Shown here: one piece after another, positions 16,374 to 30,849 of the stretch
How the letters are laid out: the number at the start of each line of letters is the position of its first letter
Numbering within the stretch: the stretch's first letter is position 1
Origin: Deltaproteobacteria bacterium
Lineage (GTDB): Bacteria > Desulfobacterota > Binatia > Binatales > Binataceae
Direction of reading: 5' to 3'
DNA: 64,000 bases
NCBI GenBank assembly: GCA_021817345.1
Contig: JAKAVC010000025.1
Coordinates: 4,454 to 68,453, forward strand
Program-made: the position numbers and the translations under genes
The notes under the pieces: model-generated
Seen by the model: the letters and a program-made list of their open reading frames with translations, nothing else
What the model was told of the DNA's origin: nothing
Databases searched by the model: none

Positions 16374-17728
16374 TCGACGTTGTCGCGCACGTAGGCGAAG
16401 ACTTCATCGAGGATGGCGGCGCCGGCTTCGGCCTGTTCTTCGGTGATCACCAGCGGCGGATTGATCCGCACGCGGGGAAAATAGCTCATCGTGAGCAGCC
16501 CGCGCTTGAGGGCTTCCTTGAAGATCACCTCAGTAACCTTGCGATTAAGCAGTTCGCCGGTCTTCTCGTCGCGCACTAGGTCCATCCCGATAAACAGGCC
16601 GCGTCCGCGCACGTCGCCGACGAACTCGTACTTCTCCTTGAGATCGAGCAACCTGCTGAGTAATGTCGTGCCGACCTTGCGCGAATTCTCGACCAGGTTC
16701 TCGGCGTTGATCGTTTTAATCGTCTCGGCGACCGCGACCGCCGCGAGCGGATTCCCGCCGTAACTCGACGACGACGCGCTGGGCTTGCCGAACGGCTCGG
16801 CCTTTCCGAGTTCGTCGCTGAGCAGCACGCCAGAGACCGGAAATCCCGAACCCATCCCTTTGCCGACCGTCATGATGTCGGGCTTGGCGCCGGAATGCTC
16901 GACGCCCCACCATTTCCCGGTGCGGGCGAATCCGGTGATCATCTCGTCGGCGACAAGCATCGCGCCAAGTTCCTTCGCAACCGACTTGATCGCGGGCAGC
17001 CAGTCGTCGGGCGGCACCACGTTGCCCGCGGTTCCCTGCATCGGCTCGACCAGAACCGCAGCGACCGCTCCGGCGGAGGAATTCTTTATCTGCTTGCGCG
17101 CAAATTCGACGCAGAAGAGCCCGCAGTGCGGATACTTCATCCGAAACGGGCATCGATAGCAGTCCGCGTACGGCACCTGGTAGCGTCCTCCGGGAAGCGG
17201 GCCGTAGCCCTGCTTGGATTCGTCGCCGATAAGCCCGATCACGCCGCCGGTTTTGCCGTGAAAGCCGCCCCAGAAGCTCACGACCTCGTATTTCTTGGTT
17301 ACGGAACGGGCCAGCCTGAGCGCGGCCTCAACGGCCTCGGCGCCGCCGCTATACAGATGCGCGCGGTTGAGCCCTGCGGGCGCGGCCTCGGCGAGCAGGC
17401 GCAGCGCCTCGGCGCGGCTCGCGTTGGCGAAGGTGCCGACAATAAGCCGGCGCGATTGTTTTTCGAGCGCCGCGGTGAACTCGGGATGCGCGTGGCCGAG
17501 GCTCGCGACCGCGACGCCGGCGAAAAAATCAACGTAGGTGTTGCCGTCCGCGTCGGTCAGCGTGGCGCCGTCGCCGTGGTCGAAAGCGACCTCGGCGAGT
17601 GAGGAGATTCGCTGGCGACCGGGGGCGATATAGCGCTGTTCCTGTTCGAATATCTCCCGCGACCTGGGTCCCGGGACCGGAGTTTTGATGCTTGGAAGTT
17701 TGGGTTTCGAAACTTGTGAAGTCGCCAT
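16358..17728 (-). CDS. class-III pyridoxal-phosphate aminotransferase, HpnO-like (aminobacteriohopanetriol synthase candidate)
   Basis: 456 aa with the AT-III pattern (FFAGVAVASLGHAHP, ADEMITGFARTGKWWG, TVGKGMGSGFPV with the Lys site). Located in the hpn neighbourhood. Confidence 0.6.
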   Translation of the reverse strand: MATSQVSKPKLPSIKTPVPGPRSREIFEQEQRYIAPGRQRISSLAEVAFDHGDGATLTDADGNTYVDFFAGVAVASLGHAHPEFTAALEKQSRRLIVGTFANASRAEALRLLAEAAPAGLNRAHLYSGGAEAVEAALRLARSVTKKYEVVSFWGGFHGKTGGVIGLIGDESKQGYGPLPGGRYQVPYADCYRCPFRMKYPHCGLFCVEFARKQIKNSSAGAVAAVLVEPMQGTAGNVVPPDDWLPAIKSVAKELGAMLVADEMITGFARTGKWWGVEHSGAKPDIMTVGKGMGSGFPVSGVLLSDELGKAEPFGKPSASSSSYGGNPLAAVAVAETIKTINAENLVENSRKVGTTLLSRLLDLKEKYEFVGDVRGRGLFIGMDLVRDEKTGELLNRKVTEVIFKEALKRGLLTMSYFPRVRINPPLVITEEQAEAGAAILDEVFAYVRDNVDWRAA

Positions 17729-23557: not shown

Positions 23558-24034
23558 TCATCCGCCGCCGCGCACGCGCCTGTCTGCCGCCTGCGTCTTC
23601 AACCCCTCCAGGTGCAGATAGGAGTAAAGCGCCGAAAAAGCCGCGGCGTGAAAGGCAGCCGCGTACGCGGACAGAAGCCGGAGCTGCGCAATCCGACCCG
23701 CGCCGCGCCCGGTTAGAAGCCGCCAAACTCCGAAGAGCGAGAAAACCACGAGCGCGTAAGCCAGCATCCAGAGCGGCAGCCGGCGCATCCATCGCGGAGC
23801 GCCGCGCGTGGCCGCCTTCCACTTGTCACGCCATCGCAGACCGCGCGTCATCGCGTGCCCGGCGAGAAACGCCGGCATCCACACGATGAAGACCGCAACG
23901 AAGGCCGCCACGGTCAAATCGAAGAGCATCGGTGTCCAGATTCCGGCGAGCGAGACTACATGCAGGCACGCGCTTGTGACCGCGCCCGCTCCCGAAAGAA
24001 CCAGAAACGGCACGGCCCACGATTGGCGCGACAT
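23558..24034 (-). CDS. hypothetical small integral membrane protein
   Basis: 158 aa with 3-4 hydrophobic helices and no recognisable family. Confidence 0.3.
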   Translation of the reverse strand: MSRQSWAVPFLVLSGAGAVTSACLHVVSLAGIWTPMLFDLTVAAFVAVFIVWMPAFLAGHAMTRGLRWRDKWKAATRGAPRWMRRLPLWMLAYALVVFSLFGVWRLLTGRGAGRIAQLRLLSAYAAAFHAAAFSALYSYLHLEGLKTQAADRRVRGGG

Positions 24035-24588: not shown

Positions 24589-25470
24589 TTATGCCCGCAG
24601 GCGCTCGCGTGAAACCGCCGAGGCGCGCAGCACGATGTTGTCGATCAGCCGGGTGTTGCCGACCCGCGCGGCGATTGCGAGCAGAATCGGCCGTTCTAGT
24701 GAAACTGCGGCCTCCAGCGTCTCGGCGTCGACCGCCTCCACGTATTCGATTTTGACCGCCTCGTTCTGTTCGAGCACCGCCCGCGCCGCCGCGGCCAGAT
24801 CTGCGGGCGTGCGCGCGTCCCACAGGTATTTCTCGCGCGCGACCATCAGTGCGCGGCTCAGCGCCAGCGCCTGCTTTCGCTCGTGCGGGTCGAGGTAGGC
24901 GTTTCGCGACGACATCGCAAGCCCGTCGGCCTCGCGCACGATCGGCATCGGAACGATCTCGACATCGAAATTCAAATCGGCGACCATCCGCTCGATCGCG
25001 CGAAGCTGCTGGAAATCCTTCTCGCCAAAGAACGCCAGATGCGGTTTGGTTATGTTGAAGAGCTTTGCAACCACGGTGGTCACGCCGCGGAAATGCCCCG
25101 GACGCGAGCGCCCGCACAGCCCCCTGGTCAGCTCCGTGACCTCAACCCAAGTCTGAGCTCCCGGCGGATACATCTCGGCCGCATCGGGCGCATAAACCGC
25201 ATCCACCGCAACCGTTTCCATCATCGCGCAGTCGCGTTCGAAGTTGCGCGGATACTTTGCGAGATCCTCGTTCGGCCCGAACTGGGTTGGATTCACGAAC
25301 ACCGAGGCGATCACGACATCGGCGCGCCGGCGCGCCTCGCGCATCAGGCTCAGATGTCCCTCGTGCAGAAAGCCCATCGTGGGCACGAAGCCAATCCGTG
25401 CTCCGCGCATCCGCGCGGCCTCGGAATAGAGCGTCATTTCACGCGCGCTGTTGATTATTTCCACGGTCAC
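24589..25470 (-). CDS. panC: pantoate--beta-alanine ligase
   Basis: [16 protein letters not shown] (HxGH motif), FGEKDFQQ, and [15 protein letters not shown]. The GTG start overlaps the panB stop (GTGA). The ORF-track N-terminal extension is not used. Confidence 0.8.
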
Positions 25471-26300
25471 GCTCCCTTTAAGCCGTAGCAATGCTCCGGG
25501 CCGGGAAAGCTCCGCTCGCGAACCTCGCGGATATAGGCGGTCGCCGCGCCCGCGGCCTCCCGCCATAGATTCGCGTAGGTCTTTGCGAAGCGCGGCACGA
25601 ACGAGGACGTAAGCCCGAGCATGTCATGCATCACGAGCACCTGCCCGTCGCAATCCGGGCCGGCGCCTATTCCGATCGTGGGCACCGAGACGCTCGCGGT
25701 GATTTCGCGCGCAAGCGGTGCCGGGATACCTTCGAGCACGATCGCAAAAGCTCCCGCCTGCTCGATAGCGCGGGCGTCCTCGAGCAGCCGCTCGCGGCAT
25801 CCGGGGCCATGTCCCTCGCGCCGGCCCTGAACCCGATGGCCGCCCATGCGATGGATCGACTGCGGCGTAAGCCCGACGTGGCCCATCACCGGAATATCGA
25901 CCCGCGTCAGCCGGGCAACCGTGTCGGCCACGAAGATCCCGCCCTCGAGTTTGACCGCTTCGGCGCCGCCTTCCTTGATGAGGCGCCCGGCGTTGCGCAT
26001 CGCGTCCTCGGGACTCACCTGGTAGGAGAGAAACGGCATGTCCGCGACGACCAGAGCGCGTTTTCCGCCCCGCACAACCATCCGGGTGTGGTAGATGATC
26101 TCGTCGACGGTCACGGGCAGCGTGCTGTCGGCGCCCTGCACCACCATCCCGAGGCTGTCGCCGATAAGCAGCACGTCCACGCCCGCCTCGTCGAAGATCC
26201 GCGCGAACGCGAAATCGTACGCCGTCAGCATCGTGATTGGCGTCGCCGCCGCCTTCATCCGGGCCAGGTCTGGCACTCGAACCTTCGCCTGATTCATCAT
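25467..26300 (-). CDS. panB: 3-methyl-2-oxobutanoate hydroxymethyltransferase
   Basis: [35 protein letters not shown] and [11 protein letters not shown] motifs. Start taken at the internal MMNQAK, preceded by a GGGAAAGAG RBS. Confidence 0.8.
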
Positions 26301-26310
26301 CTCTTTCCCA

Positions 26311-26346
26311 AAAAAAACGGGGTCGCCGTCGAACCGGCAACCCCGC
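26311..26346 (-). terminator. intrinsic terminator or attenuator hairpin immediately upstream of panB
   Basis: Minus-strand GGGGUUGCCG-GUUCGAC-CGGCGACCCC forms a 10-bp GC-rich stem followed by U8. The U-tract ends 10 nt before the panB ATG. Confidence 0.6.
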
Positions 26347-26578
26347 TTAAGAGCAGACTCAAGAAGGTCAGCGCCCAAGCCTTGATTCGGGTCCCGGTCC
26401 GGTAATTCGGATCCAGGCGCGAGCCCAAGCTTTATTTGTCTAGCGTCCCCTGTCCGCCGTGACGCAAAATCCATCGGCCTCGCCGGGTAAAACCTCGACG
26501 GGCCTGTCCCAGTCTTTCTAGTACAACAGGCGCCTTACAGTAAAGCCCGATTTGCCTTATACCGCGGAGCCAACAGTC
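26347..26578 (-). ncRNA. candidate cis-regulatory leader or small RNA upstream of panBCD (possibly a pan-motif-type element)
   Basis: About 230 nt with no credible ORF, lying between the PDZ-protein stop and a terminator that directly abuts the panB RBS. Function not verified. Confidence 0.25.
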
Positions 26579-27535
26579 TTACTGCGAGGCGGTTTGCGTG
26601 GTCGATGGGATGGGAACCCTGATCTGGACCCGCTTTCCGTTGCGTATCACGGACAGATAGACAATTTCGCCTGGAAGGGTCTTGCGCATCTGGTCCTCGA
26701 AATCCATAAAATTCGTCACCCTGACGCCGTCGATGCCGATTACCATGTCGTAGGATTCGCCAATCCGCGTGTAGTCGAGCACCGGCAACGCAAGGATCGC
26801 TGGCGGACAGACCATCGCGGCCGCTAGCACGGCTCCGGTCAGGACACTGTGCGCGGTAGTCTTGAAAGGCTGCAATCCCGCCTTGGCCGCCGGGCTTCCA
26901 GGAAAGACTTTCACCACCAGCAGCCCGTCAGCCACCTCCCCGGAGTCGAGTTTACGGCGCGCCTCGACAAATTGGGCGCCGATCTCGGAGGTCTCCGTGC
27001 CCTGCGCCACGAATTCCCTGAGCGTTCCAAGCTGCGCGTCGAGATCCTGTTCGGCCTGGTAGCTCTTTATGTCGTTGTCGCTTGAGGACGCGGTTGATTC
27101 AGGCGAAGCCACCTGTTCGTCTGGCTGAGAAGCGGCGGGCGGAGCGGCCCGCGGGATTACCTGGGTGGACTCGGGCGGCACCTGCGGACTCATCAGCACG
27201 CCGGAGCCTTCGATAACCGGCGTTTTGATCTCCGCGGCCCGCGACCGGCTCCATCCTCGGCTGCCGACAGGAACGGGCGTGGACGACGCCGACGGTGAAG
27301 GCGACGCTTCGGGCGCGTTCGATGGCGACTCCGCAATCGCGCCTGTGGACCCGGGAGCCGCTGACGGAGAACCGCCGCCCGCCGCAGACATCCGCGCGGC
27401 GTCGGCCGCGGTGATCGGGACGGGCGGTTCCGACTGCGCGCACACCGACGCGCATGCGACAAGCATTATCGCTGCGCCCGCGAACGCGGCGGCGGCAATC
27501 CTCCGCCTACGCGATAAGACTCCAGCGGCTCTCAT
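26579..27535 (-). CDS. secreted PDZ-domain protein with a Pro/Ser/Ala-rich low-complexity linker
   Basis: Signal peptide, long S/P/A-rich region, and a C-terminal PDZ-like GLLVVKVFPGSPAAKAGLQP...IGIDGVRV. The true start is probably internal. Confidence 0.45.
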   Translation of the reverse strand: MRAAGVLSRRRRIAAAAFAGAAIMLVACASVCAQSEPPVPITAADAARMSAAGGGSPSAAPGSTGAIAESPSNAPEASPSPSASSTPVPVGSRGWSRSRAAEIKTPVIEGSGVLMSPQVPPESTQVIPRAAPPAASQPDEQVASPESTASSSDNDIKSYQAEQDLDAQLGTLREFVAQGTETSEIGAQFVEARRKLDSGEVADGLLVVKVFPGSPAAKAGLQPFKTTAHSVLTGAVLAAAMVCPPAILALPVLDYTRIGESYDMVIGIDGVRVTNFMDFEDQMRKTLPGEIVYLSVIRNGKRVQIRVPIPSTTQTASQ

Positions 27536-30772: not shown

Positions 30773-30849
30773 CGGGGCGTGGCGCAGACTGGTAGCGCAC
30801 ACGCTTGGGGTGCGTGTGGTCGCCGGTTCAAATCCGGCCGCCCCGACCA
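30773..30849 (+). tRNA. tRNA-Pro (anticodon GGG)
   Basis: Cloverleaf folded by hand: acceptor CGGGGCG/CGCCCCG, D-arm GCGC/GCGC, anticodon stem CACGC/GCGTG, loop TTGGGGT (anticodon GGG), T-arm GCCGG-TTCAAAT-CCGGC, discriminator A, encoded CCA. Confidence 0.85.
30800..30849. repeat. attL core: 3-prime 50 nt of tRNA-Pro, directly repeated at 38599-38648
   Basis: Exact 49-nt match acgcttggggtgcgtgtggtcgccggttcaaatccggccgccccgacca at both positions. Confidence 0.75.

Follow-up and report, generated by a model that had tools for sequence, protein, structure and literature searches.

How is panB expressed when a strong intrinsic terminator stands directly in front of its start codon? The question is raised by a 278-nt gap on the minus strand of the stretch of DNA analysed here (64,000 nt in all, hereafter the window), which could hold a regulatory leader, a small RNA gene or the plain end of the upstream transcription unit. 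The gene order given by Pfam is coaX, MBL-fold, PDZ, the gap, panB, panC and panD, which bears out the neighbours named in a first-pass annotation of this DNA, and the MBL-PDZ-gap-panBCD synteny is common to all close relatives. The stop codon of the PDZ-domain ORF lies at 26584-26579 (minus strand). At the 5' end of panB, two ATG codons are adjacent (ATGATG, 26300-26295, minus strand). Translation probably starts at the second one, at 26297, giving a protein of 276 rather than 277 aa, because PanB is 276 aa long in relatives and the single ATG of one relative aligns with this second ATG. The features on the panB side of the gap are the following.

25467-26297, minus strand: panB, ketopantoate hydroxymethyltransferase (Pfam PF02548, E=1.4e-115).
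26301-26309, minus strand: ribosome-binding region GGGAAAGAG, read from the sequence; relatives are purine-rich at the same position.
26310-26317, minus strand: U8 tract of the terminator, the sole T8 run within the window.
26318-26345, minus strand: terminator stem-loop, 11 bp, dG -23.4 kcal/mol, found in the sequence and by a hairpin/T-run scan; conserved.

An ORF starting at 26474 runs in frame with panB. In relatives it is interrupted by stops 1-82 codons upstream, and because these fall at varying places the gap is non-coding. This ORF, which is not conserved in relatives, was rejected both as a leader peptide and as a longer PanB, and the earlier remark that the leader holds no credible ORF was borne out. 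On the other side of the operon, a 158-aa ORF without Pfam match lies about 100 nt 3' of panD (23558-24034, minus strand); two relatives (L162 and L164) have a domain-less 155-aa product at the matching position. The sole tRNA within the window is a tRNA-Pro with anticodon GGG (30773-30849, plus strand). The loop of the terminator (GGUUCGA) is T-loop-like, but ARAGORN and Rfam gave only the tRNA-Pro at 30773, and a tRNA or tmRNA in the gap was discarded.

The terminator stem (C26345-G26335 with C26328-G26318) comprises 11 bp, including one G-U pair (U26339-G26324), around a GUUCGA loop; in a consensus scan it can be extended into the U-tract to 14 pairs, nine of them G-C. On its 3' side follow U8 (26317-26310), GGGAAAGAG (26309-26301) and ATGATG. 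The first-pass annotation had described a perfect 10-bp GC stem with U8, 10 nt before the panB start. The hairpin, the U8 and the closeness to panB stand, but the stem is not a perfect 10-bp one and the distance from the U-tract to the likely start is 12 nt (10-60 nt in relatives). Seventeen runs of at least six T were found on the two strands of this 64-kb, 64% GC window; just one reaches eight, and the hairpin at that site, in the panB leader, is the most stable of the 17. A GC-rich hairpin directly before U8 has the make-up of an intrinsic-terminator attenuator; poor U-tracts were seen in some relatives (L081, L083). The annotation had also stated that no room is left for a promoter after the terminator, and this held: only the 12 nt are available, and relatives have no conserved promoter there. 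Because of this lack of room, panBCD must be expressed by read-through, which makes the hairpin an attenuator.

Homologues of PanB assign the organism to Candidatus Binataceae in the phylum Binatota. Loci were collected with PanB as query. Three related loci came from genomes and 14 from metagenomes (73-79% PanB identity), with about 30 further loci at 58-67% identity, some of them labelled Myxococcota, and four closer ones at 82-93%. A PanB scan of a genome collection returned mostly Bacteroidota loci without the element, which were used as negative controls. When the leader of the window was left out and an nhmmer profile was made from the other 16, it gave a single window match, at 26507-26309 on the minus strand (E=8.5e-34), and in the fetched loci it matched only panB leaders. 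In relatives at 90-93% PanB identity, the leader is 82-89% identical, versus 62-78% for the third codon positions of panB. The elements of the leader are listed below in the order of transcription, with the two hairpins of main interest named H1 and H2.

26539-26545, minus strand: -35-like box CTTTACT; CTTTAC in relatives, and TTTACT aligns with TTGACT in L165.
26515-26523, minus strand: -10-like A/T-rich box TACTAGAAA; relatives have TATATA, TATAAT or TACTAA at the same place.
26476-26504, minus strand: H1, pan-architecture hairpin GGCC-CGUCG-A26495-GGU uuu ACC-CGGCG-A26480-GGCC, from RNAalifold.
26443-26465, minus strand: variable spacer hairpin GCGUC...GACGC, conserved in the closest relatives only.
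26391-26418, minus strand: H2, hairpin G-CCUGG-A26412-UCCG aauuac CGGA-CCGGG-A26392-C, from a local Rfam pan match and covariance model R1 (see below).
26351-26376, minus strand: P3 hairpin (GGGCG-CU.A ... U.AG-UCUGCUC) in the interval from H2 to the terminator, from pair counts.

The order of elements is fixed in the aligned leaders: CTTTAC, A/T-rich box, H1, variable hairpin or insertion, H2, P3, terminator. CTTTAC is nearly invariant (15 of the 16 aligned Binatia-like leaders) and lies at a fixed distance upstream of H1, with 16-18 nt separating the -35-like box from the A/T-rich TAnnAn box. From this conserved -35/-10-like pair we infer that the transcript would start at about 26512-26505, which would place the terminator 3' of the promoter. 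A sigma-70 scan called no promoter on the leader strand, the -35-like box included. The inverted repeat cagtaa...ttactg, which the first-pass annotation had assigned to the leader, actually consists of the PDZ stop codon (26584-26579) and the -35-like box (26543-26538); it was dropped as part of the RNA, since it precedes the predicted transcript start. H2 lies between two direct copies of GCUUGGGC, at 26430-26423 and 26380-26373 (minus strand), the second copy being the 5' strand of P3. Either copy could pair with GCUCUUAAGC (26354-26345), next to the terminator on its 5' side, a hint at one more alternative pairing; the repeat occurs in some relatives only.

RNAalifold predicted H1, H2 and the terminator. 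In both H1 and H2, a 5-bp helix is bracketed by one bulged A per strand. Pair counts on the leader alignment showed that 6 of the 11 pairs of H1 are changed on both sides, with 93.5% of cells able to pair; in L162, for instance, CCUUG/CGGGG replaces the helix letters of the window. Two relatives, L165 (82% PanB identity; 1227-1500) and L086 (73%; 130-250), possess H2, P3 and the terminator without a recognisable H1, which appears dispensable in some lineages, as judged from these alignments. The interval between H1 and H2 is occupied in relatives by a hairpin of different sequence, by none, or by an insertion of about 90 nt. H2 pairs in 99.3% of cells across 17 leaders. It is essentially invariant among Binatia leaders, where support for its pairing comes from one-sided changes only, and in the MFE fold a weak lower stem extends it to about 26425-26384. 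For P3, 4 of 9 pairs are changed on both sides and 89% of cells pair, in a register that differs in some relatives. The terminator shows about 1-2 compensatory changes among the 10 pairs counted, as well as one-sided changes (17 leaders). Taking H1, H2, P3 and the terminator together, 94.7% of cells pair, versus 37-50% when the partners are slid by 1-3 columns, and 11 pairs show changes on both sides, a number reached in none of 500 shuffles. Conservation and covariation across relatives had been set beforehand as the check on this leader, and the profile, the pair counts and the identity values provided both. Two H2 hairpins contain duplications: in L090 (805-858), GGAUC is repeated and the distal stem is longer, and in L094 (1377-1410), CGGGAC occurs twice. 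From their sequence, these look like natural insertion variants retaining the bulged-A core.

The bulged-A hairpins relate this leader to a published RNA. In the pan motif, the consensus for each hairpin is a 3-bp base, a 3'-strand bulge, a 5-bp helix, a 5' bulged A and a distal stem (PMC2864571). The layout of H1 and H2 exactly matches this consensus structure; like published members, the hairpins are in tandem in the 5' UTR of a panB/panC/panD operon, in our case upstream of panB and in the same orientation, and a terminator also lies 3' of some published members. A gathering-level Rfam scan of the window returned only the TPP riboswitch and the tRNA. In a relaxed scan of 26200-26700, the pan family (RF01749) gave a local match at 26418-26391, that is on H2 (19.8 bits, model positions 62-86 of 92), which aligns almost letter for letter with the second hairpin of the model. 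The Rfam scan proposed by the annotation gave this pan match, but the full two-hairpin model stayed below its gathering threshold (19.8 versus 36.2 bits, with one hairpin only). Other Rfam families (ncr982, mmgR/suhB, Bp1_781, MIR856, sR23 and Pyrobac-1) appeared far below threshold, mostly on the terminator only, and were taken as chance.

Two covariance models were built solely from the seed alignment in the supplement of Weinberg et al. 2010, R1 for hairpin 2 and R2 for hairpin 1. H1 and H2 were modelled separately because a joint MAFFT alignment misregistered the 3' arms. With R1, H2 ranks first in the 64 kb (22.1 bits, rough E about 0.004). The next match, at 16702-16740 on the plus strand, is antisense inside a 456-aa ORF and was taken as chance rather than as a second copy. 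Applied to 56 panB loci, R1 gave 49 matches at E<=1, all of them on the sense strand; the matches that were placed are upstream of panB. In three loci, the match lies about 1 kb upstream and not immediately before panB (L107, 521-551; L121, 279-307; L122, 445-472), where it presumably fronts another gene of the same operon. H2 also carries the sequence signature of pan hairpin 2 (CYGCYUGGAUC...GACCGRGACRG), and its stems are identical to those of Pelobacter (CCUGGAUCC / GGACCGGGAC); the stem letters of Geobacter hairpin 2 are likewise those of H2. R2 did not find H1 and had H2 as its best match, and the Rfam pan model gave no match at E<=10 on the H1 region (26455-26525). In sequence, H1 shows no resemblance to published hairpin 1 (for example GGGCAGU-A-UC...GA-ACUGC-A-CC); after its bulged A comes GG rather than UC. 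Among the published members, hairpin 1 varies greatly from phylum to phylum (PMC2864571). Sequence and structure both identify H2 as a pan hairpin, and H1 qualifies by architecture and covariation only. Further differences from the published motif are a mismatch in the base stem of H2, the extra P3 between H2 and the terminator, and the host, since Candidatus Binatota is absent from the three phyla originally listed. On sequence comparison, the panBCD leader is a diverged copy of the pan RNA motif already catalogued as RF01749. The description of the leader as pan-motif-like is supported by the significant match of its central hairpin to published pan hairpin 2.

The distribution of the element follows that of related panB genes. 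Ahead of panB, a simple descriptor of the H2 type matched 20 of 21 loci with at least 73% PanB identity and 24 of 29 at 58-72%, but none of 106 loci, mostly Bacteroidota, below 58%. The two positive groups differ at the second pair of the 5-bp helix, which is C-G in 22 loci and U-A in 23, a clean compensatory switch. A generic bulged-A hairpin descriptor was unspecific, with 24 matches in the window versus 20.8 in shuffles, and was set aside as stand-alone evidence. Two or three hairpins of pan architecture (GGGGA-A-UCGC..., CCCUG-A-GCG..., CUCGG-A-UCC...) were also observed 150-350 nt upstream of panB in Myxococcota-like leaders (L004-L008, L096-L120). They are 50-130 nt apart and lie behind a promoter of the TTGACC type. 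In some of these leaders a terminator (GCGCCUCCGG...) comes next, and in the others GGAGG and the start codon follow at once. The Rfam pan model gave no match at E<=10 on L004-L008 in a 52-kb search. According to the 2010 paper, delta-proteobacterial pan RNAs are mostly single (PMC2864571).

The terminator and H2 are connected by a further, predicted pairing, whose H2-side strand is the following.

26389-26397, minus strand: putative antiterminator strand CCGGGACCC (3' arm of H2 plus flank), complement of 26343-26334, from pair counts.

Conservation is unusually high in the terminator 5' arm, CGGGGUUGCCGG, which complements both the 3' arm of the terminator and that of H2, the latter over CCGGGAC plus 2-4 nt (CCGG-GACUCCG). 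Because the 3' arm of H2 complements the 5' arm of the terminator, H2 and the putative antiterminator helix would be mutually exclusive. The antiterminator pairs in 91% of cells across 17 leaders, with zero compensatory changes. When the terminator 5' arm was slid along each transcript, no other segment complemented it as well as the 3' region of H2 in 22 of the 33 leaders having both elements, and these 22 span two lineages, with CCGGGACUCCG facing CGGGGUUGCCGG in Binatia and GACGGGGGCG, located after H2, facing CGCCUCCG in the terminator of Myxococcota-like leaders. In the window, the antiterminator is a bulged 9-bp helix (-11.3 kcal/mol), placed 16th among complements of the terminator 5' arm. 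The 5' arm of H1 would be a better partner there (-14.2 kcal/mol), but this pairing is not seen in relatives and was rejected.

Folding calculations were run on the competing states. The antiterminator forms whenever the 5' arm of H2 is blocked. When transcripts stopping short of the terminator's 3' arm were folded, 7 of 17 leaders had the antiterminator as MFE structure and the others had H2. Blocking one side or the other gave H2 and antiterminator states that are predicted to be nearly isoenergetic, differing by only -6.3 to +4.4 kcal/mol; in the window, the H2 state is predicted to be more stable by 3.2 kcal/mol, and these energies, taken literally, would mean constitutive termination. In leaders lacking a terminator (L113, L117 and, from the published alignment, Anaeromyxobacter), GGAGG and the start codon come immediately after H2, an arrangement in which the same OFF logic would act at the level of translation.

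We consider it probable that the gap is the 5' leader of panBCD, a diverged tandem-hairpin member of the pan family fused to an intrinsic-terminator attenuator, in which stabilisation of H2 turns expression off. In this model, transcription would start at about 26510 from the conserved promoter-like box, and the RNA would fold in the order H1, variable hairpin, H2, P3, terminator. A trans-acting factor recognising the bulged-A hairpins would stabilise H2; the terminator would then form and panBCD would be off, as feedback repression at sufficient pantothenate or CoA. When the factor is absent, the antiterminator would form and RNA polymerase would read through. The OFF direction is inferred from the modelled competition, where stabilisation of H2 should favour termination or occlusion of the ribosome-binding site.

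Three other readings of the same elements were weighed. The control might be of the ON type, with a factor that prevents termination in the starved state, either by binding the antiterminator or by destabilising H2. LicT-type dimers bind quasi-symmetric hairpins with bulged adenines, a type of target that the bulged-A hairpins described here resemble. Moreover, folding predicts H2 as the default state for the window and roughly half of the relatives, so that activation could be needed. However, H2 itself is what is conserved and recognisable, and it cannot coexist with the antiterminator. A factor bound where H2 overlaps the ribosome-binding site, as in the terminator-less leaders, should repress; nor was an antiterminator-protein gene found next to the operon in the window or in the loci of relatives. 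We therefore regard ON-type control as unlikely. Promoter, 200-nt RNA and terminator could also constitute an independent gene for a trans-acting small RNA beside panB, in line with the suggestion in the first-pass annotation that a small RNA ends here. The unit indeed has its own promoter-like box and a strong terminator, and, whatever its role, premature termination would release a separate RNA of about 200 nt. Yet panB, so close behind the U-tract and without a conserved promoter of its own in the window or in relatives, relies on read-through; wherever panB loci were examined, the element precedes panB or its operon in the same orientation; the abutment of H2 on the ribosome-binding site in related leaders makes sense only in cis; and no Rfam small RNA family was matched beyond the terminator. 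A small RNA as the main function is thus highly improbable. Finally, the hairpin might be the mere terminator of the coaX-MBL-PDZ transcript within a conserved leader devoid of regulatory role. No other terminator lies between the PDZ stop (26579) and panB, and upstream transcripts would end here; they would also end, or be regulated, at this terminator if the leader is an attenuator. Against a plain terminator, the hairpin lies 230 nt past the PDZ stop, downstream of a conserved promoter-like box, the leader is retained in L084, L085 and L086 although the upstream sequence differs, and the 200 nt in question are more constrained than panB third positions and contain covarying helices and a pan hairpin. 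This last reading is very unlikely.

Within the preferred reading of an OFF attenuator, the factor could be a protein or a small molecule. We lean slightly to a protein, possibly a dimer spanning H1 and H2, although the evidence is thin and such an effector has somewhat under an even chance. A dimeric protein was proposed by the discoverers from the tandem arrangement (PMC2864571). A small molecule other than those tested in 2010 is possible, if on the unlikely side, and some other kind of effector is slightly less likely still. The corresponding alternative keeps the leader and the OFF attenuator and makes of the hairpins a riboswitch aptamer for an as yet untried compound of the pantothenate/CoA pathway, such as pantoate, 4'-phosphopantetheine, dephospho-CoA or an acyl-CoA, with H1 and H2 perhaps co-operating or docking. 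Across phyla, the motif is strictly tied to operons for pantothenate biosynthesis; from Firmicutes to Binatota, the bases that form the helix and bulges of H2 show extreme conservation; and the putative terminator/antiterminator platform is of the riboswitch type. Guanidine-II (mini-ykkC) provides the precedent that tandem small hairpins can be riboswitches. On the other hand, no pocket is obvious in what is a simple interrupted helix, some lineages do without H1, and the discoverers favoured a dimeric protein. In addition, 1 mM pantothenate, CoA or beta-alanine did not modulate a Geobacter pan RNA in in-line probing (PMC2864571). This negative result was obtained with three compounds on one single-hairpin construct, which the authors themselves cautioned may have been inadequate or inactive (PMC2864571). 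RNA-seq papers on two bacilli identified the pan motif in 5' UTRs for the pan operon and added no function. In the literature searched, to 2026, no report was found of a riboswitch for CoA or pantothenate, nor of a factor binding pan RNA, and a CoA riboswitch class is explicitly listed as missing (PMC9971707). The riboswitch alternative is in our view possible but doubtful, and the specific claim that the bulged-A hairpins form the aptamer for a pantothenate/CoA-pathway metabolite outside the 2010 panel is rather unlikely.

Altogether, the leader is a real, conserved cis-regulatory element of a known kind, not a new type of element. A regulatory leader at this place is less notable than the annotation assumed, the pan motif being already catalogued. 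The motif, which several phyla conserve before vitamin B5 genes, has nevertheless had orphan status since 2010, and among the cofactors for which no riboswitch is known, CoA is the most conspicuous. The family is extended here to Candidatus Binatota and to long-spacer Myxococcota-like leaders, both of which the Rfam model misses. In both lineages, whose sequences differ, the strand that would compete with the terminator is the 3' arm of hairpin 2; this predicts an OFF switch and shows which helix to stabilise or break. The strong, simple transcription read-out is suited to in vitro termination assays. If an untried CoA-pathway ligand were indeed sensed, leaders of the Binatia or Myxococcota type would be the construct finally revealing a CoA-pathway riboswitch.

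Several known systems can be compared with the panBCD leader. The closest at hand is the TPP riboswitch of the same window (51673-51568, minus strand; Rfam 81.3 bits), which is likewise a sensor in a 5' leader followed by a strong hairpin and a U-tract. The hairpin associated with it (about 51510, minus strand; -20.0 kcal/mol, with T6 from 51509) is the second most stable among the T-run sites of the window, and the pair looks like a riboswitch-controlled terminator. Because the other strong terminator of the window follows a TPP riboswitch, the organism uses control of this kind. Unlike the simple pan hairpins, for which no ligand is known, TPP riboswitches form a complex, ligand-validated aptamer family.

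Guanidine-II shares with pan the two small tandem hairpins upstream of the regulated genes, and it was once deemed too simple for metabolite binding; its conserved part is an ACGR loop and the loops kiss, whereas the loops of pan vary and the interrupted bulged-A helix is conserved. The thrS operator bound by the ThrRS dimer and the RAT elements bound by LicT/BglG dimers resemble pan in another way, since two hairpins, or a single quasi-symmetric one with bulged bases, are bound by a homodimer, and binding is coupled to control of translation or termination. For pan, in contrast, no partner protein is known. Moreover, RAT overlaps the 5' arm of its terminator and works as an ON switch, whereas H2 is complementary to that arm, a logic that points to OFF.
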